Notes under the pieces: model-generated
Database searches by the model: none
Told to the model about the DNA's origin: nothing
What the model saw: only the letters and a program-made list of their open reading frames with translations
Program-made: the position numbers and the translations under genes
NCBI GenBank assembly: GCA_000004985.1
Contig: GG738846.1
Source of the DNA: Naegleria gruberi
Lineage: Eukaryota
Reading direction: 5' to 3' (one strand)
Length of the DNA stretch: 64,000 bases
Part shown: positions 4,017-59,450 of the stretch, piece after piece
How the letters are laid out: every line of letters begins with the position of its first letter
Numbering within the stretch: position 1 is the stretch's first letter

Positions 4017-4027
4017 TTCTTAGAATA

Positions 4028-8464: not shown

Positions 8465-9024
8465 CCCGACAAGTGTCATTCCAACACTGAGACAAATGAA
8501 AGAGGAGGATAAGCAAGAGCTTAGAAAAAAATTAATTCTGAGGAAGAAGAGAAAAATTTTGGAAGAAAGAGAAAGAAAACAAAAAGAACTAGAAGAAAAA
8601 CAAGCTGAAGAGACAAAACAGAATGAAAATATTGAGGAAAGTGAAAATTCATCTGGAAAGGAAAAAACTGAATAAATTAATATCAATTTAATTAATTGAA
8701 GGTGCTTAGGTTGATTATTTACAAAATTAGAAATAATGTGAAGCTATGCCATTAATCTAAAATATACGTTGTTATTTCCTAATTTCAATAATTTCAAGGA
8801 AATGCTTTTTAAAACTCTTTTGACCTTTTGAGGTGATGACTTTGTAAGATAAATCCATTCTTTCCAAAGGGTAATCAGGTCTAATATTTCCTTAGAATTG
8901 GAGATTTACTTCCTTCCTCCTCCTCATCCTCCTCTTTTAACTCTTCAGTGAGAAAGGTTGATAATTGCATTTGAAAACTCGTATTTGGCTTTGTTATTTA
9001 ATATGATACAAGAGAGAAATTAGT

Positions 9025-10315
9025 TTAACTTACTTGTGAATAAGTGTGGAGTTCTTTTACATGGGTAAATGCCTTTGAGAAATCTAGGTTGAGTTCTTTC
9101 ATAACATATCCAATTACTATTGATACACTCCTTGATTGACCAGCTAGACAATGAACAAGAATAGGCACATTCTTTTCCTTTCTTGCCCTATCAATAAAAG
9201 GAAAACATTGGTCAAATATTGAGACTATATCTTGTTTGTTGTCATCTGTTACTTGTAAATTGAGAATCTCATCAAAGAACTCAGAATATTGCTTTCCTCT
9301 AAATCCACTTTCCTCTGCAACATCAAAACATGACACATTGAGTACATATTTAACTTTGAGTACATCCACTAATAATCTTACGTTTTTGGCCGCTTGCATA
9401 GATCCTAAATAAAGATTGGGCATAATTTCTGTGGGCTATATAGAAACATTTTGGAATAATTATAGTTTCAAAATTGAAGAAACCTACAATAGTGTTCTTA
9501 ATATCGCATAATATGGTGTGATTGATTGTTACAAATTTGCTAGCACTAGATTTGGATTTACATTCTGTGTGATATTCTGCATCGCTCAGGGCATCATCTG
9601 CCTCGTACATGAATTCATGTGGAAGAGAGGAAATGTAGTTGAATCTAATGTCGAAAATAGTTCCTCTTTTTTGGAGAAGCATGATGAGTTCAATAGATGG
9701 GAATTCTGTAAGGAAATTCCATGATAAATTAATCTTTTTCAAAGTTTTTGGAAACACCTGTTCTAATATATTGACCTTCTCCGGTTGTTGAAGAAAGTCG
9801 AAATGAATTATTTTGGTAATTTTGTTGTTGGAAAAATCAATTTCTTTGATAACTGGCAAGTTTTTGAAATAGAATAATAAATCTACACTCTCCAAGCAAC
9901 CATTTGAGAAATCAAGAATACGTAATTTTGACAAAGATGATTTCACAAATGGCTCGGAAAAAGGATCTAGTTTGATTGATTCACAGAACAACACATGAAG
10001 TTCCTGGATTGACTTGCCAGAATATGACTTTTCAATATTTTGAATATCATCAATACTATTTTCCTTTGTATTTTCCTTTATAGTCTCCATGTTTTCACTA
10101 TCATTTTCATCTTCTGCAAAATAATCTAGACTAGAAAGTGGAATAGCAGAAACCGGTCCAAACTTTCCTTCGCCTTCAACATCATCATCACTTGGATAGG
10201 GATCTTGTCCGAGACTACTTGTTGAAATATTCAACACAAATTGCTTGTTCTTGTTTCCCCTCTTTTTCTTTTCTGTCTTGTTGGGTGGGGAGTTGGGAAT
10301 ATCCTTTCTTTTCAT
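9025..10315 (-). CDS. Leucine-rich-repeat + dual-specificity phosphatase (MPL1-like MAP-kinase phosphatase), about 412 aa. Exons 10315..9488 and 9435..9025, intron 9487..9436.
   Basis: LRRs (LSWNFLTEFPSIELIML..., IDFSNNKITKIIHFDF). The DSP catalytic loop VHCLAGQSRS is present. The 52-nt GTAGGT...TATATAG intron restores a canonical DSP domain start: PTEIMPNLYLGS...YVLNVS. Confidence 0.7.
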
Positions 10316-21204: not shown

Positions 21205-21938
21205 ATGCCGCCAAGAAGAAGAGCATCATCAGACGAAGATGATAACATCAGGCTAAGTGGTTTTCCTCAGACTATGACTAGTTCGCAGAGAATGCAACAG
21301 ACTAGAATAACACCAACAGGTCAATTGACAACAGCATCTTCATCAAGAACAGGAGCTGCTTCCAGTAGTTCTACCACAAGGAGACCAACAACTGCTAGCA
21401 GAACAACACGATCATCCGAGAGTGATGATGAAAGATCTAGTGGTGATGATACACCACCACCAAGAACGACACCATCCCGACAAAAAGCCACAACAACAAC
21501 ACCAGCAAGAAATTCTGCAGGTGTGCAAAAACAGAAAAAGACAACAACATCAAAATCCACAGCTAGAAGACCACCTAGTGGACCAAAGAGAAGACCTGGA
21601 GAAAAGGCTTTGGCAGAAATTAGAAGATATCAAAAAACTACACATACACTTATTCCCAAATTAACATTTGCTCGTTTGGTGAAGGAAATTTCGGAAATGG
21701 TTGCTGTGAATAGTCGTCTGAGGTGGCAAGCCCATGCTATTGATGCTGTGCAAACAGCTGCTGAGGATTATTTGATACACTTGTTTGAAGATTCGTATGT
21801 ATTTCAATATCATTATTCTTAATTGACCTTTTCAGAAATTTATGTGCCTCTCACGCAAAACGAGTTACCATTATGGTAAAAGATATTCAACTTACGAGAA
21901 GAATTAGAGGTGTAGCCAGAGAAGCTGTCTACCATTAG
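21205..21938 (+). CDS. CENH3: Centromeric histone H3 variant (CenH3/CENP-A-like). Exons 21205 (or 21172)..21794 and 21836..21938, intron 21795..21835 (41 nt, GTATGT...TTTTCAG).
   Basis: The histone fold [69 protein letters not shown] joins across the intron to [25 protein letters not shown]. Loop 1 is 2 residues longer than in canonical H3. The ~150-aa S/T/R-rich divergent N-tail is typical of CenH3. The second ATG (MPPRRR) has the A-run context. Confidence 0.8.
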
Positions 21939-22277
21939 TTCAATCCTAGTGCTCTTAATACTTCACTTAGTATTAACACGAACATTTGTGAAAATTTTGT
22001 AAATTAAACACCAAAATAGAATGGGGCTGGCTGTGACATTAAAGTTAGGTAATCAAGCTATTCCACTAAGAAACTCAAAATAACAACTAGTTTAATAAAT
22101 TTCTTTTTTATTGTAAATTGTGTGAATGGTGATTGAAAATTAGTAGAAACAAAATCTTAACCTAAATGGGATACCTCCATAATGGATGAAAAGTATATGA
22201 GTAATATCAAATGTTGTATATTGTACTATAGTGATGTTCGTTTAAATACATCTCCTAAAATTGTTGTTGTAATAAAT

Positions 22278-22745
22278 TTAAATGTTTTCCTTTTCAGCAT
22301 AGACTGCATCGGTTCCGAGTAAATCCAATGGAATTGGTTGTTGGGCCTCATATGTATGGACATCTTCTGGGAAGATATGTACTCTGCTCATTTTCAGTTT
22401 TCTCGTAGTACTATTACTCTTTGGAAGCATTCTCTTGATGGCTGTTTCCAAGACATATGTTGGGAATCGTTCATGTCTTTGTTCAGCAGTGTATTCCTTT
22501 AATCCACCAGCATATCCAGTGTGCCATCTATACATTTTACGCTTCCATTTATCACCAGTGAGAGCAACATGTTTAGCATTAACAATAACAACGTGGTCTC
22601 CACATTCTTGTCCGAGATGAGGCGAATAAATTGGTTTATGTTTACCCATCAAAATAGGTACAATCTTTGAGGCCAATCTACCAGCAATTTGGTTCTTGGC
22701 ATCAATGAGATAAAAAAGTTTTTGTCCTGTAACAACAGTGTTCAT
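22278..22745 (-). CDS. MRPL13: Bacterial-type ribosomal protein L13 (uL13m, mitochondrial), 155 aa.
   Basis: FYLIDAKNQIAGRLASKIVPILMGKHKPIYSPHLGQECGDHVVIVNAKHVALTGDKWKRKMYRWHTGYAGGLK aligns with the bacterial L13 signature. Confidence 0.85.
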   Translation of the reverse strand: MNTVVTGQKLFYLIDAKNQIAGRLASKIVPILMGKHKPIYSPHLGQECGDHVVIVNAKHVALTGDKWKRKMYRWHTGYAGGLKEYTAEQRHERFPTYVLETAIKRMLPKSNSTTRKLKMSRVHIFPEDVHTYEAQQPIPLDLLGTDAVYAEKENI

Positions 22746-34799: not shown

Positions 34800-36944
34800 T
34801 TATTCCAAGAAAGATGGCTTTGGCATTTGTTTGCTCTTTTTAAAATTGCCAATTAAATCAGAAAATCTAGAAAGAGAGGCCTTATCAGAACCTTTTGGTG
34901 GATTGGCCAGTAAATGAACTTCAATAAATTCTAGAATCTTGGCAAATTGAGCCTTATAGATTTGATGCATCTTGTAACCAGCAATTCTCAAGAATGAATC
35001 TAAAATTTCCAATGTAAACATTGTTGGACGTGAGTTCAAGAAGGCAGCTAGCCATTCCCAACCCTTCTCAATACCATACTTGTGACCTGGTGGATTATTT
35101 TGAATAATCATGGCATATATTGTAATAATATCATTCATTCTATTCATGTATTGAGATTGACTTTCCATTTCGCCATCCTCTTCCTTGAAGCCAAGTTTTT
35201 TCTTCAAATCAGAAGCATCAGTAACTTCATAAGGGAAGTATGGAATTGTAAAGATGCAATTGGTATGAATGTATCCAATCACAGCATCCAAAATTTCAGG
35301 AGAATCATTCATCAATTCAGATGTTACCTCAATGAATGGTAACACCTTCTTCAAATCACTAGTTTGACTTGCTGCTTGATCCACAATGGTTCTAGCATAA
35401 AAGTACAAACAAAAGTAGAATACATCCTTCTTGACCTTTTGCTTGGACATTATTTGATTGATTTCCTTTACAATTTCTCTCTGGTTAGTTTCTGTTATTC
35501 TGTTAATGGTCTTGTTAATGAGCTTTTTGGCAGCATCCATTTCTGGTTTTAGTTGGGGATCCATTCTCTTTTGGAACGATGCATACATTTCCTCCATTCT
35601 GTCAACATAAATTTTGGCAATAACGTAGGTTTTTGGTCTGGTAAAGTTTGGAACGGTAAGGGTTTTCTTAGGTCCAGAATATGGATTAACAATGGAAATG
35701 TCACTCTTTTCGGCTGGAGTTTCTTCTGCAGTACCGATACTATTTGGTTGTTGAGGTTTGATAGGAGAAACGTTAATTTCAGCTGGGGCAGTGGCAGCGA
35801 TGGCAGCTTGTCTTTTCTTTTCTTCTTCTTCGGCAGCTTTTCTCCTTTCTTCTTCGAGTTTTTCACGAGCAATTCTCTCTTGTTCTGCTTTTATCTTGGC
35901 GATACGTTCTTGCTCTGCCTTAATTTTAACAAGTCGTTCTTGTTCTACCTTTCTAATTTCTTCATTTTCACATTCGACAAGTTTGAGAATTTCTGCAAGT
36001 TCCTTTTCGATGTTTTGTCTAGAATTTTGCTTTCTAATATGGAGTTCTTCAAGTGCTTTCTTAGTGTCCTGTTGATGAATAATTGGTGTCTGGGTTGTTT
36101 GAATTTTGATTGATGTAGGTATAGATTTTTTGGAGTAAATTTCAGAGAATTCTTCAAGAGTCGATTCTACTGGAATAATTCTTCTCTCTGGTCTGGAAAT
36201 ATCAATAGGGATAGGTGGAATGTTGTCATCTTCGTCTTCCAAATCAAGGCCATACCGTCCTGAAGAGTAGATATTGGTAGGAGTGACTGCTACTGGTTCA
36301 TAAAATTTTACATTCATATTAATATTATCACAGTCTTTTAGTGATTCTGATAGATTGGCTACCAAGTCCACTTTTCTCTTCTGTTCTTCAGAAATTAAAT
36401 CTAATGGAGCGGATCCAAGTTTCCTCTTTTCCACATGATTGATAGATTTTACCAATATTGGTTTAATAACTCGGGATGGTGTGATGTGTTCTAAATCCTC
36501 ATCCGATTGCTGATTTTTCCTAATATTTTCTCCATCTTGATTCAATTTTTCTATTGTATTATTATTATTTTCTGAAGTATTGGTATTTATATTTACTCGC
36601 TTTTTTGGTCTATCCTTGTTGATTTCCTTTCGTGATAATAAATAATTATTTACTAGATTACTAATTTCCGTTCCTTTAGTAAGTAGTGAAGTTGTTCCAA
36701 CAACAATAAATATCATTAAAATGGAGACCCAACCATTTGTTGTTCCAAAAAGCAGAGAGGAAAATAAGTCATTCTCCGTGTTGTTTTTTTCTTCATCACC
36801 CGAGTTGGTTTTTAAAATTTCTTCTTGGTCATCCATGAGAACAGACGAACATTCAGCCATTTCCGACAATAAGAAACCTCCTAAACACGATGCTATAACA
36901 AATATTAAACCAATGACGAAGGATATTCTAACATGTTGTTTCAT
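34800..36944 (-). CDS. GLE1: GLE1-like mRNA export factor, with an unusual N-terminal two-TM segment and a long coiled coil, 714 aa.
   Basis: The C-terminal Gle1 domain (DVFYFCLYFYARTIVDQA...NCIFTIPYF...GHKYGIEKGWEWLAAFLNSRP...FLRIAGYKMHQIYKAQFAKILEFI) is collinear with human GLE1 (CPYSVPFY...GWRWLAQILNM). The N-terminal hydrophobic helices FVIGLIFVIASCLGGFLL and VSILMIFIVVGTTSLL are in the same uninterrupted ORF. Confidence 0.7.
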   Translation of the reverse strand: MKQHVRISFVIGLIFVIASCLGGFLLSEMAECSSVLMDDQEEILKTNSGDEEKNNTENDLFSSLLFGTTNGWVSILMIFIVVGTTSLLTKGTEISNLVNNYLLSRKEINKDRPKKRVNINTNTSENNNNTIEKLNQDGENIRKNQQSDEDLEHITPSRVIKPILVKSINHVEKRKLGSAPLDLISEEQKRKVDLVANLSESLKDCDNINMNVKFYEPVAVTPTNIYSSGRYGLDLEDEDDNIPPIPIDISRPERRIIPVESTLEEFSEIYSKKSIPTSIKIQTTQTPIIHQQDTKKALEELHIRKQNSRQNIEKELAEILKLVECENEEIRKVEQERLVKIKAEQERIAKIKAEQERIAREKLEEERRKAAEEEEKKRQAAIAATAPAEINVSPIKPQQPNSIGTAEETPAEKSDISIVNPYSGPKKTLTVPNFTRPKTYVIAKIYVDRMEEMYASFQKRMDPQLKPEMDAAKKLINKTINRITETNQREIVKEINQIMSKQKVKKDVFYFCLYFYARTIVDQAASQTSDLKKVLPFIEVTSELMNDSPEILDAVIGYIHTNCIFTIPYFPYEVTDASDLKKKLGFKEEDGEMESQSQYMNRMNDIITIYAMIIQNNPPGHKYGIEKGWEWLAAFLNSRPTMFTLEILDSFLRIAGYKMHQIYKAQFAKILEFIEVHLLANPPKGSDKASLSRFSDLIGNFKKSKQMPKPSFLE

Positions 36945-38633
36945 TTTTTCAAAAAATTTGTAAATAATAATTTAATTTCTTGCCCTTTAATTTTGTTGAA
37001 ATAATGTTAGATTGAGTAATTTTCATCATTTTGCTCCAATTGAACATGCACCATTAAAAATCAACAATATATATGAAGCCATTGTTAGGCTCATTTGGAC
37101 GGTGTTACTTTACACTTTTATAATAACGTAACACTCAAGATATCAAAAACCTCAATAACAAATGAACCACCCTCCTCACTCGATACTCACTCAACAATAC
37201 TGTTTGAAGCAGCAGAAGATGTTAATGAATGGGAGATATAGTGTAATTCTCATGGTAGTATTAGTCATTGTAATGTGTAACGTGTGTATGAAATCAATTT
37301 AATTGGTGCTTTACATAATCACCATCCCACCAATGTTATTGAGTGGAGTGGAGTTGTGTTTATCAATCAAAACATGACCATACATTTTAATACTGCATTG
37401 GCAATTAGGGATGATGCAACTATTGTGTTCTATGTGGATAAAGAGGAAAAACTAAATCTTGATTATTACATTCGAAAGAGGTGATCTAAAGATTGGATCA
37501 AGAGTTCAGTTTCTTAGTTTGAGTATGTTTAGAGGGACACAAAAAACTCCAGCTCAAACAGCTTTCAATACTGAAGATTGGGGATTCTTTTTCAGATACT
37601 ATTGATGAGAATCATGCAGTTAATACACTCAACCTTAACTCTGTAACAGTAATGGAAAGTAGAAGATTTCAAAGTGGATCCCCAACTTTGGCCATTTCCA
37701 ATCTCAATTCGCAGAGATTGTCATTTTGAAGGAGGGAATTCAATTTCTGCAACTGTTATTGACTAAACCTTTGAGTTGGTGTCCTGTCTCCCCTTGTATC
37801 CATTTCAAATACATCATTTGATAATTCAATGGCAACAAAGTCTGGTATTGCAGTACTCAACAATTTACAAAGGAAAGTTGTAATGGATATAACAGATTCT
37901 AGGTTTACTAATATATTTGGAGTTTTAATTGCGTCAGATAATATCGTTGAAAGGTGCTATGGCTCTCCAGATTTGACTTTCTCCCTTATTCACATGTCAC
38001 ACACAGTGTATCGGCTCTCTTTTGATAAACAAAGTATTCCTGACAATTCCAATATATATACAAAATTGAGTCTTTTTCATTTTGGAAGCTTGAACGAAAC
38101 TGTTTCATTCTCCAACATCAGACTTCTGTTATAGAGGAATAACAAAGTCTAACTATATGTTCAACACAACTTTTAACTATTGGGGATCAAATGTTGACAA
38201 GTCAAAGAATTTGGAACCTTGGACAACTTATTCGCTTATATCTGAAAAACTTTCTCCAACCACTGCATTTTTATTTGTCCCTTACTACTTGGAGTCCAAA
38301 TGTACATGATATATTGGAATATATATTCCACCCCTCAAGTCAACTCATCCTGTTCATTCTTCGGCAGAATTGGAAAATCAGTATGTGTGGATGGATTGTT
38401 GTTGTGTCTTTCTGTTGCAGTTTTTGTTGTGATTATTTCAGTTGTATTGGTTTTGCTTTCTATAATGTTGGAGAAGAAAGAGAAGTAGTTATTTGGCTAT
38501 TAACTAACCGTATGCACATAAATAATCAGTGATATCAATATTAGCAATTCATAACAATTTAATGGATTTAGCACTTGCTTGGTACTTTTTGGAGTAAAAA
38601 GTAGTGATTAATTACAATACATTTTTTTGTGTC

Positions 38634-41600
38634 TTAATCCTCTTCATCAGATGGAATAAATTCGTCACCATCATCTTCGCCATCCTCTGGTTCACTGGCT
38701 TCACTATCAGAAAGTTCAATTATTTCCTCCTCCTCTTCTTCTTCATCCTCAGATTCCACCTTCTTATTGGCTCTGGTTGTCCTAACAGGTCTACCTCTGG
38801 CTTTAGGCTCTTCTTTATCTTCTTCAGCATCAGAAACAACAACTTCTTCAGCTTTCTTCTTCAATTCAAAAAAGTCTGTAATACTGGTTTTCCTCTTTTT
38901 GGTTGGTGGTTTTGTTTCCCTGGTCTTTATAGGGGCAGTGATAAGTTCCTCATCCTCTTGTTTTTCGTCACTCTGACTGCTACTGGCAGCTGGTTGGGCA
39001 GGAGTTGTTGCAGCAGAAGTTTTCCTCTTGACTCTCTCTGCAAATGAAAGTTCTTCCTCAGGTTCTTCATCTTTTTTTTCCTCCGCAAGTTCTTCATTCT
39101 TTGTGAAGGATAATTTGGTTTGCTTGGCAGCACTTCTATTCGATTTCACTGCTTTTGGTTTTGCTTCTTCTTCTTCTTCTTCATCATCGTCTTCATCGTC
39201 TTCATCGTCTTCCTCAACTTGTTTTTTGGTAGCTGGTTTTCTGCCACGTTTTGGTTTTTCATCGTCTTTGTCATCTTTCTTTTTAGCTGCAGGCTTTCTT
39301 CCTCGTTTTGGCTTCTCTTCCTTTTCTTCATCTTCCTCTTCGTCAGATTCTTCCTTTACTACCTTTTTGGCAGCTGGTTTTCTGCCACGTTTTGGCTTTT
39401 CTTCCTTTTCTTCTGCATCGTCTTCATCCTCTTCTTTCTTTACAGCTGGTTTTCTACCACGTTTTGGCTTTTCATCATCGTCAGCTTGTTCTTCTTTCTT
39501 TACAGATGTAGCCCTCTTTCTGGTGGTCTTGACCTTGGCTGTTGACTCATTTACGACAATGTCAGGTCTTAGTTTGGAAGTGGCACGATAACCCTTAGGT
39601 CTTGGAATTTTACCATGTTTTCCTCTTTCCTTTTCAATTTTCTTAAGGTAAAAGTCAAACTCCTTTTGTTCCTTTTGCTCATATGAATCTAACTTTTCCA
39701 AAAATTCGTCCAACTCAGAAAGCCACATTGTTTCAGGTTTAGTATTTTCCAACTGTTCAACTTCCTTTACCTTTTCCTCTTTTTCTTTTTCTAATTTCTT
39801 TACTTTCTCAACAGTTAATGACCACAAAGGCATGGACAAAAGATAATTGTATCCGTCAGTAAGATCTGCAACATCCTTTTCTTCATCCTCTTCTTCCTCT
39901 TCTTCCTCGTTTTGGATATCTCCTGCTGCTGCAATCTTCTTTTCCTTTGGGAATGAAGAATACTTCTTTGTTTTGAGTTCTTTTAACAGGTCTGCCTTCT
40001 TTCTCTTTTTCACTTGGATGGTTTCGTTAATAACTTCCATTATAAATCTGACCTTGTTGGAAAGGATTTCTAATTCCTTCTTCATCTTTTCTAGCATGTA
40101 TTCTTTTCTTTTGCCATAGAATTTCAATCTAATTGGATAAAACTCCTTCAAAATGTCCAAAACAGTTTCATATTCTTTGATACCACCCTCTTCAGAAAAT
40201 AAAACCATATTACTAGTAGAGAATTTCTTAAACAATTTAAAGTAGTCATATAGCCCAGCGTCTTCAGCATCTTTCATTTGCTTATCAGTCATTTTAACTG
40301 TGAAAGAGACAGTTACATCAGTGTGATTTTCTCTGAAATCGTCTACTTGTTGAGCTTCCATCATTTTTTCCAGACGTTCTTTGAATGATTCTGTCCATAT
40401 CCTAATTGGTAACTCACTGATATCAAGTGTATTATCATCGATTTTCTCAATGACACCCTTGGTTTGCCATTTGGTTGGAGCTAATCTTTCAATAATACCA
40501 TCAAAGCCTTTATACCATGGATGGAACTCCTTAGCTTCTTCTCCCTTAATCAGTGCCTTGAGTCCTTCGACAATATCAACTGGATTATAGGTTTCAATGT
40601 TTGTAGACCAGGCAGTACCAATACCTTCGGATCCATTTACTAACACCATTGGGAGAATTGGAACGTAAAATCTTGGTTCTATTGATTGACCGTCATCATC
40701 CAAATATTCAAGTACTGGATCATCAGCCTTAGGGAAAATGTATCTGGTAATTTCTGATAATTTTGTAAAGATATATCTGGGACTGGCAGAATCCTTTCCT
40801 CCTTGAAGACGAGTACCAAACATACCACCTGGATAAAGCAAGTTGATATTGTTGCTACCAACAAAATTTTGAGCCATATTTACAACTGTACCATTCAAGC
40901 TGTCTTCACCATGATGGTAGGCTGATTGTTCTGAAACGTAACCGGCAAGCTGAGCAACCTTGATTTCCTTTTTGAGGTTTCTCTTGAAACAACTGAATAA
41001 GATTTTTCTTTGACCAGGTTTTAAACCATCAACAATACTAGGAATAGATCTCTTACAGTCAGCCTTAGAGAAGAGAATCAATTCCTTATCAATAAAGTCT
41101 GTATATGAAATTTCCTTCTTGGAGTGATCAATGTAGGTACCTTCTTGATGATTATTTAGCCATTCCTTTCTTTCATCTGTGGCAGCCTTGGAAAATACAG
41201 AGGTGATCTTTTTATCACAATCAGTATCATACTTGAATCTCTTTTGGTGGAGAGACATATTTGAAAAGTATTCCTTTGCTTCTGGTGCTGTTGAAGTACC
41301 CAAACCCTTGTAGTATTTAATAGTCCAACCTTTTGTATCTGAAAGTCCTTCTTTCCATGTTTCATATTCAGGAATACTGAAAAAGGTTACAGCTTTCTTG
41401 GTACGATTGTTAGTTGCTTTTACGATTGGTGTTATGAATTCTTTCAAAAATCCAGGTATTTTGAGTAAGCTTGGCCAGAATTTGTGAATAAAATTAATGA
41501 GTAAACCTTTGATGTGTGAACCGTCGTGATCTTGATCAGCCATGATCATAATACTACCATATCTGAGGGATTTGATATCCTCCTTTGTGTATGTCTTATC

Positions 41601-43190
41601 AAATTTCAACCCTAAAATTTTAGCAAGAGTACTAATTTCTTCATTCTTTACAACCTTATCCAGTTTACAATCTCTTACATTGAGAGGTTTTCCCTTTAGT
41701 GGGAATACTCCGTAGTAATCTCTACCAACTACACTCAAACCACCAACAGCAAGAGCTTTAGCAGAGTCTCCTTCTGTTAAAATCAAGGTACACTTTTCAG
41801 AATTTTTACTACCAGCATCGTTAGCATCATCCAATTTAGAAATACCAGTCAATCTTGATTTTTTAGTTCCTGATTTCTTATTGAGGGCTTTTTCTGACTT
41901 GAAATCAGCATACTTCAATACTGCTTCTGAAGCCATTTTAGTGACCTTCTTTAAGAATGCTTCATCTAATTTACATTTAGAACCAAAATCTTTCATAGAT
42001 GTGGTAAGAGTTTCCTTAGATTGAGAATCAAAAGATGGGTTAATAATTAGAGAACTGACAAATACCCATAATTGATTCTTAATGTAGGCAGGTTTGATAG
42101 TGTTATTTTTTTTAACCAGTGCCTTTTTGATATTATCTGAAACTTGATTTACGATATGATCAACATGTTTACCGCCTTTGGTTGTGCAAATACTATTGAC
42201 AAAACTGACTTGTTGCATGGAACCTTCACTCAATGTTATACCAACTTTCCATCTCTTACCATCTTCAAAGTAATGAATTTCCTTATCTATTGTGTAAAGT
42301 TTGACATAATCTTTAAATGTTTTCATTCCTGTAATCTTTTTTCCATTCAAATAAATACCAATACCAGTTTTAAGAGTACCTGCCAAATCATAAACTCTCT
42401 TTTTTAATAGGGAAACAATATCATCATCTAGTTTATCCATTCCAAATTTAGAAAGATCAGGATAAAAAGTAATTTCTGTATAACTTTCAGCTTTTGAACA
42501 TGTTGTAATTTTAGGTTCTTCCTCTTTTTCCATATTTTGAGTCCAAGTTTGTCTAAACTTTTTCTTTTCCTCAGAGTCTACTGTTTCAACAATAAACTTT
42601 TCGGAAAATATGTTTGTAAGTTTTGCACCATAACCATTTCTACCACCTGTAACTCTTTTTTGTGTATCATCAAAATTACTACTAGTTAACAAGTGACCAA
42701 AAATCATTGTTGGCACATAAATTTTGTGTTCGGCATGGATCTTGACAGGAATGCCTGCACCATTATTGTAGACTGATATTTCGTTTTGTTCGGGATTGAT
42801 TGTAACTTTAATCTTGTTGCAAGTTTCATCTCTAACAGAGTGATCGGCAGCATTGACTAGAATTTCATCAAAGATTTTATACAAGGCTGGAACAAATTTG
42901 ATAGTTTTCATCTTCATTCTTTTGTCTTCATCATCCCAAATCCACATATCCTCACCTTCTTGCATATTGACTGACCCAACATAGGTATCAGGTCTCAAAA
43001 GGATTTGTTCACGAAGACTTTTCTTTTGATAAATTTCTTCGACAGTCTTGTTCTTGTTGTTGTTAGATTCATCATGATCAATGAATTCAACCTCATCGTC
43101 TGATTCTTCGGCAGCAGAAGCTTCATCATCCGATTCTTCTTTTCTCTTTCTTTTTGGTGCAGCAGCTGGTGCTTTCTTCTTTGGTGGCAT
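38634..43190 (-). CDS. TOP2: DNA topoisomerase II, 1518 aa, intronless.
   Basis: GHKL ATPase (EILVNAADH, GRNGYGAKL), TOPRIM (LILTEGDSAKALA, MIMADQDHDGSHIKGLLINF) and the WHD/catalytic Tyr region. Start at MPPKKK (ATG 43190) rather than the track's upstream extension. The basic/acidic C-terminal tail has four PKRGRKPAxKK repeats. Confidence 0.92.
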   Translation of the reverse strand: MPPKKKAPAAAPKRKRKEESDDEASAAEESDDEVEFIDHDESNNNKNKTVEEIYQKKSLREQILLRPDTYVGSVNMQEGEDMWIWDDEDKRMKMKTIKFVPALYKIFDEILVNAADHSVRDETCNKIKVTINPEQNEISVYNNGAGIPVKIHAEHKIYVPTMIFGHLLTSSNFDDTQKRVTGGRNGYGAKLTNIFSEKFIVETVDSEEKKKFRQTWTQNMEKEEEPKITTCSKAESYTEITFYPDLSKFGMDKLDDDIVSLLKKRVYDLAGTLKTGIGIYLNGKKITGMKTFKDYVKLYTIDKEIHYFEDGKRWKVGITLSEGSMQQVSFVNSICTTKGGKHVDHIVNQVSDNIKKALVKKNNTIKPAYIKNQLWVFVSSLIINPSFDSQSKETLTTSMKDFGSKCKLDEAFLKKVTKMASEAVLKYADFKSEKALNKKSGTKKSRLTGISKLDDANDAGSKNSEKCTLILTEGDSAKALAVGGLSVVGRDYYGVFPLKGKPLNVRDCKLDKVVKNEEISTLAKILGLKFDKTYTKEDIKSLRYGSIMIMADQDHDGSHIKGLLINFIHKFWPSLLKIPGFLKEFITPIVKATNNRTKKAVTFFSIPEYETWKEGLSDTKGWTIKYYKGLGTSTAPEAKEYFSNMSLHQKRFKYDTDCDKKITSVFSKAATDERKEWLNNHQEGTYIDHSKKEISYTDFIDKELILFSKADCKRSIPSIVDGLKPGQRKILFSCFKRNLKKEIKVAQLAGYVSEQSAYHHGEDSLNGTVVNMAQNFVGSNNINLLYPGGMFGTRLQGGKDSASPRYIFTKLSEITRYIFPKADDPVLEYLDDDGQSIEPRFYVPILPMVLVNGSEGIGTAWSTNIETYNPVDIVEGLKALIKGEEAKEFHPWYKGFDGIIERLAPTKWQTKGVIEKIDDNTLDISELPIRIWTESFKERLEKMMEAQQVDDFRENHTDVTVSFTVKMTDKQMKDAEDAGLYDYFKLFKKFSTSNMVLFSEEGGIKEYETVLDILKEFYPIRLKFYGKRKEYMLEKMKKELEILSNKVRFIMEVINETIQVKKRKKADLLKELKTKKYSSFPKEKKIAAAGDIQNEEEEEEEDEEKDVADLTDGYNYLLSMPLWSLTVEKVKKLEKEKEEKVKEVEQLENTKPETMWLSELDEFLEKLDSYEQKEQKEFDFYLKKIEKERGKHGKIPRPKGYRATSKLRPDIVVNESTAKVKTTRKRATSVKKEEQADDDEKPKRGRKPAVKKEEDEDDAEEKEEKPKRGRKPAAKKVVKEESDEEEDEEKEEKPKRGRKPAAKKKDDKDDEKPKRGRKPATKKQVEEDDEDDEDDDEEEEEEAKPKAVKSNRSAAKQTKLSFTKNEELAEEKKDEEPEEELSFAERVKRKTSAATTPAQPAASSSQSDEKQEDEELITAPIKTRETKPPTKKRKTSITDFFELKKKAEEVVVSDAEEDKEEPKARGRPVRTTRANKKVESEDEEEEEEEIIELSDSEASEPEDGEDDGDEFIPSDEED
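39220..39500. repeat. Four imperfect ~72-84-bp tandem repeats inside the TOP2 C-terminal coding region.
   Basis: Each encodes EEKPKRGRKPAAKK (AT-hook-like GRKP core) flanked by acidic runs. They show as the repeated AAGFLPRFGF peptide in the antisense track ORF 39028..39591. Confidence 0.6.
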
Positions 43191-43234
43191 CTTTAATGGT
43201 ATTTTTTTTCTTTTTGTTAACAGAAAATTATTTG

Positions 43235-43246
43235 TTTGGCGCCAAA
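43235..43246. promoter_or_regulatory. Perfect palindrome TTTGGCGCCAAA (canonical overlapping E2F sites), about 45 bp upstream of the TOP2 ATG.
   Basis: Exact 12-bp palindrome. TOP2 is a classical E2F target in animals and plants. Confidence 0.55.
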
Positions 43247-43315
43247 CAAATGCTAGGCTTTTCAAAACATTGTTAGAGATATCTTCTTTCAATGGTTACA
43301 ACAACTCAAATTTTT

Positions 43316-46300
43316 TTATTGAATTGATCTGTACATGTAATTATTTGTACTATTCAGAGAATAGGTACTACCATCGTGTGACTCGTGCAATGTGTTTCCA
43401 GGATTTAAACGACCTGTAATTGGGGCGGGCATTGACTTTACCTCATGCACCAATTTTTCTCGTTCTTCTGTAGGGTTAACTCTCAATTTTCTAAAAGGGC
43501 TTCCAAGTGGTTGCCACTGATGAATAATGTTAACATTCACCAGAGTTCCATGCACAGGAACGTGTGTTTGTTTGGAAAAACTTTCAAGAAGTCTTGAATA
43601 GGATTTCTTTGGATGTTTTTCTTTGGTTGTTCTCGATTTATCCAGAACAACTTCTCTCTGATTTACTTTCACATTCTTTCCAATTGTTGAATTATATTGT
43701 TGCTCGGCAATAAATTTTGCTGCATTAATTACGCCCCATTTCTTTAGGGATTCTTTTGATATCTGTACATATTGTCCAGTTTTTTCGTCGAGAATAATAA
43801 TAGTTTTCTTTGGATCTTTAGAATTTTCCTTATAGGGAACAGAAGGAATATCTTCGACAACATTTTGACTAGCATCATCCAAAAAAGTTTCCCAATTCAA
43901 ATTCTTTGATTCGTTTGACATTCCAATAGCTTCCTGGATGGCATCTCTAAGAATGGATGTAATTTCAGCAATTGACGATGGAACAGGGCTTGAATTCATA
44001 GGGTCCATAGACCTGTAAGCGTCATGTCTAACTGTTTCATACGGTAAGTATTTTCTATTAGGAAGAGAGGCTGAGGATACTATTGGCTTAATGCTAGGTT
44101 CTATTCTGCTGTTGTAGCTTCTTACTGAAGACATTGTTTCAGAGACATTGGCAGGAGATGTGAGTTTGGCTTTGATGAGCGTTTTCATCTTATTAGCAGT
44201 AAGATCTGGTTTCACTTTTGGAATATCTACTTCAACCTTCTTTTGAGGAGATTTCTTGTTTTTAACAATTGCCTTTATGGCTTCATGACCATCAAGCTCT
44301 TCCACATTTGATTTATCATTTCTCTTTTTTGATTTTTCAATCCTGTTCTTTGAAAGATATTTCAAGTCCTCATATCTCTTTTTCAATGGAGATTTGTGTC
44401 TTCTATTACCGTCAAATATTCTTTTTGCAGCATTAAAGTTAGCTCTCAAATCTCTAATTCTCTTGTCCTTTGACTTGATAAGCTTTTCCATATATTCAAG
44501 TTGATTCTCGTACTTGTTACGTTCTCTCTCAAAAATATCTTCACCATCGTGGGATGCTCTCAATAATTCTTCATTCTCTCCAAAAACTTCTTCGGCGTCA
44601 TCGAAACTATATTCATCTTCTTGAAAGGACTGGTAAACCTTATTGAAAGAGCCCATTAGATCCACATGCTCATTTTTCAGTTCCTCATACCTCTTGAAAA
44701 CATTTTTAATCTCTTCCTCATCAGCTTCATCAAGGGGAGAATTTTCAAGACTAAGCTTTAAGAACTCGATAATCTGATCCTTTTCTTTCAAAGTATTCTC
44801 CAAAGCATCCATTTTAAGTTTAAATTCAATCTGTGCTTTGATCTTTTCCTTGCTCCGTTTAATTTGACTTCTCTTCTGACTAATGTCTTTAAGTTGTGAC
44901 TGGAACATGGTGCTAGAACTATCTCTATCCTTTTCTTGTATTTGCTTAATTCCCGTTGTAGGGTCCACTACCATAGTTGGTTCTGGGAATACTCTATTCC
45001 TCAATTGATATGGTAAAATGGTTCTTATTACCTCTGGATCATCCATGCCCTTTAGAACAACAGGACCCATATACTTGCACCAAACCTTTTCAGAAAATGT
45101 ATCAAGTTTGTCTTTGATGGCATCCCACACAGAGTTTGAAATGACTATTTGACCACCTGCAGCCTGACCTTCAACTCTGGCTGACCTATTCACCACTGGT
45201 CCGAAATAGTCATATCTTCCTGTAACTGGATCCTTTTCAACAATTGGTTTACCTACATGGATACCCATTCTCACTCGCAGTCCTCTAAATATCATAGCAT
45301 TTGCATCTTCTGTGTCGTATTCAATTCTACCAGGTTTCAGACTCATCAATTCATTTGGCCAATCACCATACACCAAAGAAATTTGAGTCTTGATCGCAAA
45401 CTCAACAGCATCTTCAACACGATGAAAAGCACACATAAACTTTGTTAAATCATTGCTAGTGGTTGAAGAACATTTTTAAAAAAACTTACTGCATCACCTT
45501 CTGTTTTTACTTCGAACCCATCAGTTTCTGCTAAAATACTTCTTATTATTGAATTGTGAAGTTTTAGTGACTTTTCCATTGTTAAAGGATCAAGTTCCCA
45601 TAATCTTGTAGAATCTTGAACGTCTGTAAAAACAAGAGCCACCTCTCCTCTTGGACCTTCTTTAGGAACATTTTCGTCTTTCTTGTCTTCCTTATAAAAC
45701 TGCAGTCTTCTTTTCAAAATATCCATTTGTGTTTTGTAATCCGATAATTGGTTAGCCAAATCATTTGCTTCAAGAGAGACCTCTTTCAATTGTTTTTGGT
45801 CTTTTTCTTTCTTTTGTTCTTGGCTACTAAGAATGAGGGGTATTATTTGAGATTTTCTCATAATTGCTTCCTCATTTCTAGGTTTTGGAGGTGGTAATTT
45901 GATTTCTTGAATGGGTATTGGTACAAACTGTTGTTGAGATGGTTTTTTCTCAACAGGTGGTGGGAGTAATTCAATTTTTGAATTAGTTTTTGACAATGGT
46001 TGTGGAGTTTGTCTTCTACTCGTAGGCTTTTGAGGTATTTCTTCCATAACAACCAATTCCTTATCAGTTGTAATTTCCTCTTCGCTGTCACTCAAAACAA
46101 GGATCTCTGGAGTTGGTTTAACAGGAGATGCTCGTTCTACTACCAATTCTGGTTTTTTGTCTTCATGTTTTTCTTCTTTTGAGGGTTCTTCTGGAATGAG
46201 AAGCACCAGATCATCATCCTTTTTTTCCTCAATGGCAGGTTTGGGTTCAAAATCCTCCTCCAGCTCGTCCAACATAGTGGGCGATGACCCGTCCACTATT

Positions 46301-47247
46301 GGAATAGTTTTTAGAGTGGCTTGTTTTTTTAGTTTTTCAGCCTTTCTAATAAGCTTTTTCTTTAGTTTTTCAGCATCTTCTCTCTCCTTCTGCAGTCTAT
46401 CAAGTTCTGATTTTCTTTTCAGTTCCAAATTTTTGAGATTGGCGAGTGTCTCCTGTACCTTTTTTGATTGCTCTTTCAAAGCAAAATATGAAGCTGTATC
46501 AATTGTTGTGGTGTTATTTTCAGAATCGAGAATATCATCAGATTGATAGGTATCATTGGCCATTTCATCCTCATATCTATTCTTTTTAGACCAATTAAAT
46601 AAAGAATAATCCGTTGGTTGATAAGCTATTGAAGCTCCTTTCTTAAATAATTCCTCTCTCAGTAGTATTAATTCTTTGAAAAATGCTTCTCTTTGATGAT
46701 CGAGAAGTTCATTTCTTCTTTTGAGTTGACCTTTCATTAATTCCACTTCCACTTCATGCCTTCTGAGTTTTTCAGATAAATCTCTATTGTTAGTTAATAA
46801 TTCTTCCTCTTTCTTATTTCTTGCAATTCTTTCCCTTTCTATTTGTTGTTCTCTAATGATTGATTGAATTTTTAAGTCATCAAAGGCACTTCCGTGGTCA
46901 GGAGTTGCTGAAATTGATTTAATGGGAGTTTTAGTGCCACCATGATCATCCTCTGAAGAGGTTGGCCTCTGACTTGACTTTGGGCGAGATCTTCTACTGC
47001 TTACTCTTCTCCTCGATGAAGAGGTTCCAACTCTATCCTGTGGTGTTGAAGGATCGATTGGAGATTGGGCTTCCATTCTACCTTCCGAAGCTTCTGAAAC
47101 TCGTGATTGAGGTCTTTCCTTAGGATTAATAATACCCAATTCGAGAGGTGAGTCATCACTGTCCTCCTCATTTTGTTGTTGAGAAGAATTTTCGTTTTGT
47201 TTTACATCGAGGTAAGGAAGTTTTTTAAAGGATGCACTCGAGTCCAT
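43316..47247 (-). CDS. Class III nucleotidyl (adenylyl/guanylyl) cyclase with a long N-terminal coiled-coil region, about 1293 aa. Exons 47247..45490 and 45439..43316, intron 45489..45440 (50 nt).
   Basis: The intron GTAAGT...AACAAAG joins ...ALVFTDVQDSTRLWE...KTEGDA to FMCAFHRVEDAVEFA..., recreating the cyclase (K/T)xGDA(F/Y)M motif. Downstream are RVRMGIHVGKPIV, YFGPVVNRSARVE and a C-terminal extension. The start ATG 47247 is uncertain because there is no A-run. Confidence 0.65.
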
Positions 47248-47417
47248 ACTAAAATATATCCAAGCTGATGATATTATTTTCTTCTTTTGCAATTCCTCAG
47301 AGATATTGTCTTCCTCCTAAAATCAATATAGAATAACTACCTCAAATAACCTATTTGTCTTATACTACTAGTACCTGTTGAGTTCTTTTTTTAAACTTTG
47401 AAAAACCGTAATTTTAA

Positions 47418-54769: not shown

Positions 54770-56528
54770 TTATTGAGAAATAGAACCCTTTTCAAATTGA
54801 TAGAGTGATTCTCTTTCGTGTGGCAAGAGGGTTGGGACAGTGGAGAAGTAATAATTGAATGGATAGTACAAGAGCAAAACAACGTCACTACAATATAAAT
54901 CGGCAAATCTTTGAATTTGAGTACTAAAGTATGATTCTCTTGTACCTGATCTGAATGTGCTTCCAAAGTATGAATTAAAGTGGGCATTGAGTTCTTCTTG
55001 GGCATTGGCAATTTGTTGCTTGATTGGGAATTCTTCAACATCTTTGTGACCATTGATAGGATAGGATGAATCAAGATTCTTAAAGCTTTCAGCTCTGATA
55101 TATTCCAATGTATGAACAGTGTTCCACATTTCACTTGATCTCTTTGTCATCCAATTTTTAGTTTCTTCTTCAACTTCTCTGACAATGAGGAGGGTTCTCC
55201 ATAGACATCTATTTTGTTTGGTAACAATGATATCGTGGAAAATATTGTCTCCCACGTATAAAACCTCAGAACCTTTAGTCTTGGTGAATTTCTTGAATAA
55301 ACCAAAAGAACCTCCACAATAAACGCTTCCTTTTTTGAACCCCTTAACTGCTGACAATTTCAAACTTCCAGTCGATTGATCCACTTCTCTCAAAGTTGAA
55401 CCTTCCTTAAAGAATTTTGGTTTTTGACCATTAGTAATAATGATATCAAAGAAATCAGTCCATCTTTCATAACCTTCAATAGATTTATCCAACAAGAAGG
55501 CCATAACTGCATTAGTATAAAAATATTCTGAATTGGTTAAGAGGAAAATCTTCTTTCCAGCCTTTCTCATTCTATCAAACAAGAGTGGAAGCCTATCATC
55601 CTTCTTGATATATTTAGCTAAATCAGACATGACTTCATTCTTTAAGCTATTATCACTATGAACACCATGGAAACATTCTCTGATATCATCAAAGAGAGAC
55701 CAATAAGAAAGTCTAGCTTCTTCACTACTGGTTTGTTCAGTACTATCAGAATCATTGCTGGTAGGACTTCCAGTTTCACTCTTAGCAAGGAAATTGGTTT
55801 GTTCAAAGTAATCAACAAGAGATGCATAGAGAGAGGCTTCTGGAATTCCGAAAAGGGTATCATAACAGAAATATCTCTTACCCATTTCTTCTTCATTGTG
55901 AATCAAGTGATCTGGATAGAATCGTTCATATTCGGATTTTTTAACAATCTTTTTACCATGAACACATTGCAAGATGAATCCATAGTGGTCAACCTTTAAA
56001 ATGTTGCCATATCTTTTATCTAGGAATGTACCTCTGACTGCAAATGATGGATCATAGGTAATATTGAGAACTTCGGATGGGTAACCTTTAGAATCAACAA
56101 GTCTTTGAAGGATCATTTTAGTACACATTGATTCAAAGACTGGAGAAATGTAATTCTATTATTGTTATTATTATTATTATATTAATATTGTAGATCAATT
56201 TTTGTTGATTAATTTGTTGTTATTTTGGTGGTGATGAATTTAGTGTGAAATTTATGAAAATGCATTCCCATTTAAATACTTACAGCACTTTAAAATGTTT
56301 AAATTGTTGTGTGAGATAAAATAATAATACTTACATTGTATAATCCATATCAAAGCCATAATATTCAATATTATCCAAATTAACAGTACGATTTACAAAA
56401 ATACGATGTTCAACTGGTCTTCTGTACTTTTCTGGGAGTTCATAATCTATGGAGGAATCTAACTTCTTCAACTCGGAACTAGAGACTGGAAAAGAGATTG
56501 GCAATGGTGTTTTTGGTGTCTTTGGCAT
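54770..56528 (-). CDS. NT5C2: Cytosolic purine 5'-nucleotidase II (NT5C2-type HAD hydrolase), about 527 aa. Exons 56528..56335, micro-exon 56287..56284 (4 nt), 56155..54770. Introns 56334..56288 (47 nt) and 56283..56156 (128 nt).
   Basis: Exon 1 gives [32 protein letters not shown] (human: KYRREAYHRVFVNRSL...CFGFDMDYTLA). Direct splicing of the flanking exons is impossible in any phase. A 4-nt exon TGCT bounded by AAAG| and |GTAAGT yields [16 protein letters not shown]...QRLV (human DMDYTLAVYKSPEYES...ERLV). Later motifs [12 protein letters not shown] and [31 protein letters not shown] follow. Confidence 0.75.
56284..56287 (-). other. 4-nt micro-exon (TGCT on the coding strand) of the 5'-nucleotidase gene.
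   Basis: It is flanked by a 47-nt GTAAGT...TTTTAAAG intron upstream and a 128-nt GTAAGT intron downstream. The downstream intron is AG-free until its terminal AATAG. The micro-exon is required to keep the frame and restores the conserved I-A dipeptide. Confidence 0.6.
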
Positions 56529-56729
56529 GTTGTTAAAGAGAGAAAGTTGTTGAGTTATTTTTTTTTGATTGGAAAAACGATATTGGTAACCACAGTAATA
56601 ATAAGGCAAGGTTGTTGATGAGATGCTATAAATAAACTGTTAAAAAATTGTAATGATCATGTACATCTAAGATGTTGAACAAAAAAATTTCAAGATATTT
56701 GCTGGCGGAATGAAGCTTTTATTCTCAAC

Positions 56730-59450
56730 TCAATTAACAGTATTACCCTCCTTTTGTTGTTTGTCAATGAATAATAATTCACAAACACTCATCAATTTTA
56801 AGAAATCAATTAATTGTTTTTGTGAAAAACACTTGTACAAACCACGTGTATCATCAGCAATAATGTCGGCCAATTGCATACAAGCATCATATTCCTCTGC
56901 AAATGAAAGTAATTGGTAGAGGCAAAAAACAATATCTGGAATGCATTTTTGTTTGAGTTTGGCAAATTCTTGTTTCGTAGAATCATCCACATTTTCAATA
57001 GTGAGCCAAGGTGATTGAACAATAGCCAGGTGGTTATCCTTAGCTTGTTTGAGGAAAATCTCATTTTCTTGTGTCCATTTCTTGAGAATGGTATTGTTAA
57101 ATTGGCTCAAATCGCTTTGATACTTAATCTTATCAGCTTGAGTACGGAAAGGACCTTCTTGAGTGGTAAATGTAGGTCTTTCTTTGATATGGGTATTCCA
57201 TGACACATAGGTAGTTATTGCCTTCTCATAGAGTGTCCAAAACATGTATTCTTTAAATATTGTTTCTTGTCTACTGTCAAGACCAACATCATCCAATTTC
57301 GAATCAAGTTGCTCGTGGAGCTTTTTCATTAATAATTCAAATGCTCCTAGTTTACCTTGGTCAATAAATTCTCTTATCAATAAATTTGTTTGGAGCAGAC
57401 AATTGAATGGGTTAATATCTTCAATACAGAGCCAATCGATTGAGTTTATCTTCTTAATGTCCAATTCGGTGGTTTGTCTTTCTCTTAGATTCTTGAGTGG
57501 ATTATTTTTTGGATCTAAAAAGAAGGCAGCATCAAACATGTTGGTAACTTCATCTTGGGAAGCTTTTTGTTCAAGAGTTTTTTGAGCAACTATGGTGGCA
57601 ATTTCTTGAATGTTTAAGCCTTGCTCCTTTGCTTTAGCGATGAGCATGGATCGGAGATTCTTTGAATTCTCCTTCTCACTTTTTTCTATTGCAATAATCG
57701 ATTTTGCATATACATCCGATCTATAGTCATAGGTAACATTTGTATCGTTTCTATTATGTATAAATTTGGTGTAGAAGGCAATAGATTCGAATTGCTTAGA
57801 GGCAATCAAGTAGTGGATATATTTGACAATGATAGCGTCCTTACACTCATCTTTTTCGAATGAGCCATTAAGACTTATCCAAGTTAAAATAAAGTGAGCG
57901 CTAAATCTTGACAGGTTGGCTAAATATGACATGGTGTACTCTGCTGGATTGTTCACAGAGTCTAATAAATATTGAACTAGATTTGGAATTTGGCTGCAAA
58001 TAATGTATGACTGAATAACGTGATGGTACTGCACAGCATCAATTTTGATCTTCTCATTTGAAGAAGTATTAACAGATTGGACAATCTCCAGTAATGACCT
58101 GCTATTACTCTTGAGTGAATCGAGAACAGAGCCAACATATAACTTGTCTTCAGAATCATTTGGTACGTATTTGGCGAGCTCTTGATTAATTAGATAGAGC
58201 ATTGTTGATTTGCAATAAGCCCATAGATAGTCTTCCCATGAAATACAACATGGTAGGATTGAATTCAAGTCTCCTGCAATACTGCCATAAATAGCCCTTT
58301 CGTATTGATGAATTTCATCGTCATTTACAGTATCTGATTTCAAAATTGATAGAATGGTATTAAGGTAAACAAATCTGTTTTGATTGCCAACAGTTTCCTC
58401 ATTTTCACAGGCACCTGGCATTAATCTAGGGTTATGGTAGAGCTCAGACCCAGATAAGGTTGATGCTCTCCAAAATTGGTTGTGCATACGACAGAATTTT
58501 TGGGCTTCTTCAATCTGTCCAGATCTGACTAGTGCCCAAGTCTTTTTAATGATTATTCTTTCCTGTCTCAAATCATTCTCATCCAAGTTATTATTCTTAT
58601 AGATAGAATCAGGATCAACATATTCTCCACCTCTGGATGTAAAGAGCCATGCTCCTTCATTTTCCACATCAACTTTTTCCTTGGCATTTTCTTCCAACCA
58701 ATTGACGATAATCTTTAGAAAGGTAAACGAAAATGTGCTTAAAGAAAAAACATACTTGTAATTTACGGAACTCGCTACCAGTTTTCATCATTTGGTTGAC
58801 AACCTCTTTGTGACTGACTCGCCACACGAATTTCTTTAATTCTTGTTGATTAAGATGGTCACTAATATTATCAAGTGATTTCTTTTCATCCTCAAATAAT
58901 AAATACAACAATTCCCAAGTAAATTTTTCCAATTTGAGTGTTGTGTACTCTTTTCCGACTTTTAAATGTTGTTCATCAGGAAGAAAATACGTCTTTTGAT
59001 AAATTTCTTGTAATTCTTGAACTCTGTCATTCCATTAGTACCATAATCTCTATTAACTTACTTTCTTTCACAAATCTTTTCAAATCTTTTTGCTAACACA
59101 ACATGAGAATCGGAAAATGATTGATCCAAAACTTCCATAAACTTGGAATCTAATAGAGTATTACTATTTTTAATTTCTTCCATTCTATAATTTCTCTCGT
59201 AAATATCAATAACATTATCTAAATTATCTTCATGTTGTTGTTTTAAATTCTCTTCGTCATCATCAGAAACTAATCGTAATGGTTGTGTATCGTCATCAGA
59301 AATCATTTGATCATCATTAGGAGATACATCCATCATTAAATTGTTATTTCCAGAAATCATTTGATAATCATCATCAAGATGTTGTTTTCTTGTATTGTTG
59401 TTTCCGCCACCAAAATTGAAGGACATGGGATAAAACTTGTTTCCTTCCAT
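56730..59450 (-). CDS. NUP107: Nucleoporin Nup107 (yeast Nup84), about 879 aa. Exons 59450..59062, 59023..58756, 58712..56730. Introns 59061..59024 (38 nt) and 58755..58713 (43 nt).
   Basis: KTWALVRSGQIEEAQKFCRMHNQFWRASTLSGSELYHNP and HQYERAIYGSIAGDLNSILPCCISWEDYLWAYCK are collinear with the human NUP107 core (RAIWAMLCAGRLDEARQLC...[41 protein letters not shown]). Only one acceptor in the first intron is compatible with a phase-2 GTAAGT donor. The second intron is GTATGT...CTAAAG, phase 0. Confidence 0.8.

Follow-up and report, generated by a model that had tools for sequence, protein, structure and literature searches.

A probable decayed gene for a membrane protein between GLE1 and TOP2 in Naegleria gruberi

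The DNA analyzed here (the window) is a stretch of 64,000 nucleotides from contig GG738846.1 of the Naegleria gruberi genome, and is nuclear DNA of this species. Between positions 36945 and 38633 it contains a gap of 1689 bp (hereafter the island), bounded by the start of the Gle1 gene (36944) and the stop of the TOP2 gene (38634). Pfam confirms both flanking genes, and the separation is as the earlier note on this sequence had reported. An N. gruberi protein at NCBI, which UniRef lists as mRNA export factor GLE1, matches the Gle1 ORF at 100% identity. The same note had stated that all other spacers in the window are 300 bp or shorter, which is not the case: with a gap defined as a stretch without an open frame of at least 110 aa, I found others of 359, 360, 461, 566 and 577 bp. 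At 577 bp, the longest of these is about one third as long as the island. The other long gaps, at 8462–9027, 21820–22280 and 56156–56732, span 461–577 bp, all without an open frame of at least 110 aa.

A separate observation concerns the Gle1 protein itself. Its annotated N-terminus (36876–36944, minus strand) starts with MKQHVRISFVIGLIFVIASCLGG, and a second hydrophobic stretch, WVSILMIFIVVGTT, is found near residue 70; the Pfam GLE1 domain is limited to residues 449–674. Signal- or transmembrane-like segments such as these are unusual in a nucleoporin-associated export factor.

Direct, inverted or tandem repeats of note are absent from the island, and neither blastn nor tblastx relates it to any other part of the window, so that it is not a copy of a repeat or transposon in this stretch. 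The features of the region, including those identified in the analyses described below, are listed in Table 1.

Table 1. Features of the Gle1–TOP2 region and of the proposed gene remnant (37219–38488, plus strand). Coordinates are positions in the window; one intron from elsewhere in the window is included for reference.
Feature	Position	Strand	Frame	Remarks
Gle1 ORF	34800–36944	-		714 aa; Pfam GLE1
Divergent spacer	36945–37218			GC 0.299, spacer-like; between Gle1 start (-) and former start of the presumed dead gene (+)
Start codon and signal-peptide remnant, MLMNGRYSVILMVVLVIVMCN	37219–37281	+	1	aligns to N-terminal hydrophobic segments of P0005 and P0006
Ectodomain start, ...NVIEWSGVVFINQNMTIHFNTALAIRDDATIVFYVDKEEKLN	37282–37457	+	0	tblastn 35–37% identity to P0004, P0005, P0006
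Coding remnant, LIITFERGDLKIGSRVQFLSLSMFRGTQKTPAQTAFNTEDWGFFF	37458–37596	+	1	50% over 36 aa; P0004 residues 78–113, P0005 residues 87–119
Coding remnant, DTIDENHAVNTLNLNSVTVMESRRFQSGSPTLAISN	37597–37702	+	2	34% identical; P0004 119–147, P0005 128–159
Short remnant, SIRRDCHFEGGNSISATVID	37704–37763	+	0	left over from ~110 ectodomain residues (P0004 148–260)
Coding remnant, VGVLSPLVSISNTSFDNSMATKSGIAVLNN...SLFHFGS	37766–38079	+	2	in-frame TGA at 37772; holds 101-aa ORF
Short remnant, FWKLERNCF...	38080–38139	+	1	7/9 identical to P0004 403–411, FWKIERNIF
Most conserved family motif, FNTTFNYWGSNVDKSKNLEPWTTYSLISEKLSPTTAFLFVPYYLES	38157–38297	+	0	58%/49%/42% identity to P0004/P0005/P0006
Stalk, transmembrane segment, tail, stop	38298–38488	+	2	aligns to P0005 residues 498–542
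Convergent 3' spacer	38489–38633			GC 0.269; from stop of the presumed dead gene to TOP2 stop
TOP2 ORF	38634–43292	-		1552 aa; complete type II topoisomerase (Pfam)
ORF, 66 aa	37284–37484	+		from list of ORFs of at least 66 aa
ORF, 101 aa (ATG)	37829–38134	+		from list of ORFs of at least 66 aa
ORF, 113 aa	38191–38532	+		from list of ORFs of at least 66 aa
tblastn, P0004 4–66	37257–37448	+	0	37% identity
tblastn, P0004 78–113	37480–37587	+	1	50% identity
tblastn, P0004 119–147	37610–37696	+	2	34% identity
tblastn, P0004 261–381	37781–38101	+	2	26% identity
tblastn, P0004 403–411	38080–38106	+	1	78% (7/9)
tblastn, P0004 433–477	38163–38297	+	0	58% identity
P0005 transmembrane region	38324–38479	+	2	weak alignment
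Intron of cyclase gene	45440–45489	-		50 nt, GTAAGT...AG; splits GDA|FMCAF motif

Both the short plus-strand ORFs and the coding-like base composition described in the earlier note were borne out. Three such ORFs (66–113 aa) are present on the plus strand, and nothing comparable on the minus strand, where the longest ORF in the gap is 40 aa. On the plus strand, the six longest open stretches total 534 codons, a value that none of 1000 dinucleotide shuffles attains (331±41); the same test on the minus strand gives an ordinary result (288 codons, against 315±38 in shuffles). The GC content of positions 37219–38488 is 0.344, identical to that of the pooled coding DNA (0.344), compared to 0.296 for the other spacers, and runs of at least eight A/T occur there at 5.5 per kb, compared to 17.3 in the spacers and 7.4 in the coding DNA.

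A sliding codon-usage score, trained on the genes of the window itself, identifies 0, 0, 1, 2, 0, 2, 0, 2 as the best plus-strand frames along the island, with values of 0.1–0.3 per codon in these frames, compared to 0.29±0.18 for real genes and -0.09±0.15 for shadow frames. Global 3-periodicity is absent in the island (1.3, versus 2–30 for coding DNA); since several frame changes would blur this signal, its lack is no evidence against a coding origin. The island's best codon-usage score, a coding-like 0.23 per codon, belongs to a 50-codon open frame at 37089–37238 (plus strand), upstream of the start codon at 37219. This frame has no similarity to the protein family described below, and lies almost entirely inside a 177-nt segment that is absent from a second copy of the locus; it may be a chance product.

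In order to search for homologues, the plus-strand fragments were concatenated and compared by index-free phmmer (HMMER) to 1.84 billion protein representatives. Five proteins were matched (P0002–P0006). Two of them, P0002 and P0003, are short ORFs of 104 and 90 aa that match parts of the island with ∼90% identity. The only long matches are P0004 (553 aa, 39% identity, E-value 4.7e-24), found in Logan assembly SRR15442457, P0005 (551 aa, 37% identity, E-value 4.1e-19) and P0006 (570 aa, 32% identity, E-value 2.5e-9). P0005 is an N. gruberi protein (XP_002674643.1, NAEGRDRAFT_50876, UniProt D2VMX5), annotated as "predicted protein" and located on a different scaffold, a contig of 371 kb; a literature search gave no mention of NAEGRDRAFT_50876. 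A word-indexed protein search with the concatenated fragments gave no matches, and the same type of search with the family alignment gave P0005 as its sole match. Neither the island fragments nor the intact homologues match any Pfam family. None of the annotated N. gruberi proteins contains the island fragments, and the segment 37219–38488 is unannotated in the N. gruberi reference.

P0004, P0005 and P0006 share a common architecture, consisting of a signal peptide, a long beta-rich ectodomain, a motif with the consensus NYWGxNVDKS...ISxKLxPSxxFxFVPYYL, a stalk, a transmembrane (TM) helix and a short tail. In the island, the signal peptide, the beta-rich ectodomain, the NYWGxNVDKS...VPYYL motif and the C-terminal TM segment are all recognizable, in order, between 37219 and 38488, but in different frames. 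An AF2 model of P0005, of modest confidence (pLDDT 66 and pTM 0.66, from a three-sequence alignment), shows a beta-solenoid for residues ∼38–436 and a TM helix for residues 516–549. The stalk and TM layout of 38298–38488 fits this helix, with the TM segment GLLLCLSVAVFVVIISVVLVLLSIML at ∼38393–38470, a basic tail (EKKEK) and a TAG stop codon at 38486–38488.

The tblastn matches are colinear, and follow the frame order 0, 1, 2, 1, 0, 2. A frameshift-aware protein-to-DNA alignment is also colinear, running from the signal peptide through the TM helix to the stop codon, and its frame path agrees with that of the codon-usage score. This dynamic programme uses six frameshifts and three stops for P0004, eight and one for P0005, and four and three for P0006, and covers residues 1–477 of P0004 and residues 1–536 of P0005. 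The score obtained with P0004 is 284, compared to 23±4 for dinucleotide-shuffled DNA (maximum 36, n = 344) and 26 for the reverse strand. The phmmer E-values, the order of the HSPs and the score relative to shuffled DNA all indicate that the colinear homology is significant.

Breakpoints recur at ∼37280, 37458, 37594–37603, 37703 and 37764, 38054–38155 and 38298–38317. The first of these separates the signal-peptide remnant, whose ATG is at 37219, from the ectodomain start, and a frameshift is required at 37279–37282; the codon-usage score of 37282–37457 is positive in frame 0 only. Downstream of the remnant at 37597–37702, frame 2 is closed by a TGA stop codon at 37727. The short segment 37704–37763 is used by the frameshift-aware alignments of P0004 and P0005, which shift frame on either side of it, at 37703 and 37764, and leave long gaps in the DNA. 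The remnant at 37766–38079 shows 26–34% identity over 53–130 aa to the intact proteins (P0004 261–381, P0005 266–318, P0006 270–397), and is 91% identical to P0002. Compared with each of the intact homologues, the island lacks approximately 100–140 residues, or roughly a quarter of the length, and residues 148–260 of P0004 are compressed into 37697–37780.

P0002 and P0003 are both carried by a single ENA metagenome contig of 1493 nt (L001), which aligns to 37000–38683 of the window. The alignment starts in the spacer next to Gle1, where 37000–37097 are 99% identical, and reaches into the 3' part of TOP2, so that L001 is the corresponding locus of a different strain or allele. A number of lesions are common to both copies, namely the frameshift at ∼37600 (37594–37603), the stops at 37727, 37764 and 37772, and the large internal deletion. 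Others are found in only one copy. A 5-nt deletion at 37458 breaks the frame in the window, while L001 retains ...KLNEHLIITFERGD... in one frame; conversely, a 5-nt deletion at 37341 in L001 abolishes the conserved IEWSG, and a 177-nt deletion (37098–37274) has removed its start codon and signal peptide. Further L001 indels are located at 38027 (-1), 38052 (-2), 38121 (+4), 38244 (-14), 38297 (-10) and 38498 (-9). Since some lesions are common to both copies and others are private, the gene was already dead in their common ancestor, and decay has continued since.

In the well-aligned parts of the remnant, 9 of the 12 substitutions between the window and L001 are non-synonymous and 3 synonymous, a ratio close to the neutral expectation, albeit from small numbers. 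Together with the indels of non-triplet length and the loss of the start region, this points to an absence of purifying selection, again with the small numbers in mind. Over 37712–38683, the two copies differ by one substitution and six indels (1, 2, 4, 14, 10 and 9 nt), and over the whole remnant by eight small indels and ∼13 substitutions, L001 being ∼190 nt shorter overall. For neutral DNA this is an unusually high ratio of indels to substitutions, with a bias towards deletion.

I propose that the island is a non-functional pseudogene, on the plus strand, of a ∼550-residue membrane protein gene located between Gle1 and TOP2, and consider the probability of this reading to be roughly 0.93. 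A decayed pseudogene was one of three possibilities raised in the earlier note, and is the one that the data uphold, with colinear homology that requires frameshifts, stops and deletions, and a second copy that has both common and private lesions. A frame-broken gene remnant also explains why a coding-like composition is found together with an absence of long ORFs.

Such a relic could conceivably have acquired another role, if it were transcribed from the head-to-head spacer of Gle1, either as a long non-coding RNA or as the source of a short membrane peptide. An example of the latter would be the 62-aa ATG ORF at 38300–38488, which retains the TM helix and tail. However, the scattered strain-specific indels, some of which lie in the region upstream of this ORF, speak against constraint, and I regard this scenario as unlikely. 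The exact ORFs at 37829–38134 and 38191–38532, as well as other ORFs of the window, have no record in the public-assembly index, a result that carries no information on this point. Were the relic to act in either of these ways, it would represent a pseudogene in transition to another kind of element.

It is very unlikely that the island is instead a non-coding RNA gene, as the earlier note had also envisaged, whether for a long non-coding RNA or for a structured one (telomerase RNA, RNase P/MRP or a snoRNA cluster). A long ORF-poor gap within a compact genome does suggest one, and pseudogenes may still be transcribed; nonetheless, neither Rfam, nor a tRNA scan, nor folding lends support to this reading. 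A search of the whole window, covering snRNA, snoRNA, telomerase RNA, RNase P/MRP and SRP RNA, gave no Rfam 15 matches at gathering score, and relaxing the threshold to E-values of up to 10 for 36700–38900 only revealed sub-threshold noise (at most 21 bits, E-values of at least 0.8), although heterolobosean non-coding RNAs are sparse in Rfam, making a negative search weak evidence. A SNORD19B-like match at 36990–37070 (minus strand) was rejected, as it scores 20.9 bits where the gathering score is 50, and has no D box. The tRNA/tmRNA scan found none. Minimum free energy z-scores in 150-nt windows average +0.34 on the plus strand and -0.13 on the minus strand, and the lowest value in the 42 windows is -2.05; these scores are the same as those of TOP2 coding controls, and indicate no stability beyond that of shuffled sequences. 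In addition, the protein homology accounts for the sequence fully, and the strain-to-strain indels are spread throughout.

A third possibility is that the island corresponds to a functional gene with many small exons, where the frame changes would be introns and the mRNA would encode an intact member of the family. Short introns do occur in the N. gruberi genes of the window: approximately 11 are readable at ORF junctions outside the island, with lengths of 38–55 nt and GTAAGT, GTAGGT or GTATGT donors. The adenylate/guanylate cyclase gene at 43316–47292 (minus strand), which consists of two ORFs separated by the intron listed in Table 1, was used as a reference for local introns. Within the island, one candidate, at 37523–37595 (GTATGT...TTTTTCAG, 73 nt), cleanly connects frame 1 to frame 2. 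However, its removal would also excise MFRGTQKTPAQTAFNTEDWGF, which is 50% identical to P0004 and P0005, and it is therefore not an intron. Other candidates, at 37282–37343 (GTGTGT), 37241–37348 and 37720–37775, were discarded for poor donors or wrong phase. At least six frame changes would be required, but introns of the GT-AG type with the local consensus are not found at these positions. Five plus-strand sites match GTAAGT at five or more of its six positions, compared to ∼4.3 expected by chance (2.5 per kb per strand), and most of them are not at frame changes; the plus strand of the island has no exact GTAAGT and two GTATGT, one in conserved coding sequence and one in the TM segment. Splicing would moreover not remove the disabling lesions, as in-frame stops fall within segments that align to the homologues, roughly a quarter of the protein is absent, and the non-triplet indels of L001 differ and fall inside the would-be exons. 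With donors at chance level and the best candidate intron within homologous residues, the many-tiny-exons gene suggested in the earlier note is scarcely credible.

Finally, the probability that the gene is intact, and that the apparent breaks stem from errors made when the reference was sequenced or assembled, is negligible: some lesions do occur at slippage-prone sequence (a GTGGA duplication, a (TA)n run and an A run), but the adjoining frames of TOP2 and Gle1 are uninterrupted, the missing residues are absent relative to all intact homologues, and L001, assembled independently from a metagenome, repeats the ∼37600 frameshift, the three stops and the large internal deletion, which rules out assembly error as the cause.

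Under the favored pseudogene reading, the original gene order would have been Gle1 (minus strand), a divergent spacer of ∼274 bp, the membrane-protein gene (plus strand, ∼1.65 kb), a convergent spacer of ∼145 bp, and TOP2 (minus strand). Spacings of ∼274 and ∼145 bp are normal for this genome, and the divergent spacer presumably contains the promoter and 5' UTR of Gle1. The product of the parent gene would have been a type I membrane glycoprotein, with a signal peptide, a predicted right-handed beta-helix ectodomain, the NYWGxNVDKS...VPYYL motif, a stalk, a single TM helix and a basic tail. Its frame has since been broken at least six times by frameshifts, and also by several in-frame stops, and ∼380 bp have gone through internal deletions, leaving a frame-broken remnant of ∼1.27 kb. 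From these lesions I infer that the locus makes no functional protein, and that it now evolves neutrally, whittled down by deletions.

This is an ordinary kind of feature, whose practical value is small, as it explains a gap in the annotation and adds one pseudogene. Pseudogenes are not discussed in the Naegleria pangenome paper (PMC9928731). The locus provides an example of gene loss in progress, and of deletion-biased decay, in a compact protist genome, and the island is no longer a hopeful site for a missing Naegleria non-coding RNA such as telomerase RNA. It also draws attention to a tiny, uncharacterized family of surface proteins with a predicted beta-helix, which has so far been encountered only in N. 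gruberi and a few other assemblies.

Among the intact members of this family, P0004 is the closest relative of the island copy (39% identity overall, and 58% in the NYWG motif). P0006 and P0007 (570 aa, on ENA and JGI metagenome contigs) have the same architecture as P0004 and P0005. I found no intact family member beside Gle1 or TOP2, as the contigs that encode P0004, P0006 and P0007 either have other neighbors or are too short; the ORF upstream of P0004 is not recognizable as Gle1, and the neighbor of P0006 is an RNA ligase. In the JGI metagenome contig (L004, from 3300002220), P0007 (1199–2911) is followed in tandem by a 564-aa paralogue (3124–4818). The two are 29% identical (E-value 2e-69), and neither has a Pfam match; this tandem pair indicates that the family grows by local duplication in some relative.

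Comparison with P0005, the intact N. gruberi protein, shows the same order of parts as in the island: a signal peptide, an ectodomain that starts with IEWxG, the GxLxIG...WGF segment, the FDN...GIA repeats, the NYWGxxVDKS...ISxKLSPSxxFxFVPYYL motif, the stalk and the TM helix, with 37% identity over the matched stretches. However, P0005 is intact and encoded on a different scaffold, whereas the island copy is frameshifted, contains stops and is ∼100–140 residues short. As the identity is only 37%, P0005 is an old paralogue and not a recent duplicate. With regard to fold, a Foldseek search of the PDB with the P0005 model returned right-handed parallel beta-helix proteins as all of its best matches, which are weak, with E-values of at least 1.5e-3, TM-scores of 0.2–0.34 and 8–14% identity. 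The intact P0005 model thus resembles proteins such as the Streptococcus pneumoniae adhesin PfbA, polysaccharide lyases and phage tailspikes, a likeness that would concern the predicted fold class of the parent family, not membership, and that says nothing on the dead copy.

A pseudogene is called unitary when the gene has decayed where it stood and no functional duplicate of recent date exists. This implies that a function was lost from the genome; the comparison made here covers the copies in the window and in L001. The island resembles such pseudogenes in several respects: it occupies an ordinary gene slot, flanked by spacers that are normal too, shows no sign of retroposition and has no close paralogue, and it has accumulated multiple independent disabling lesions, some of which are common to the two copies of the locus.
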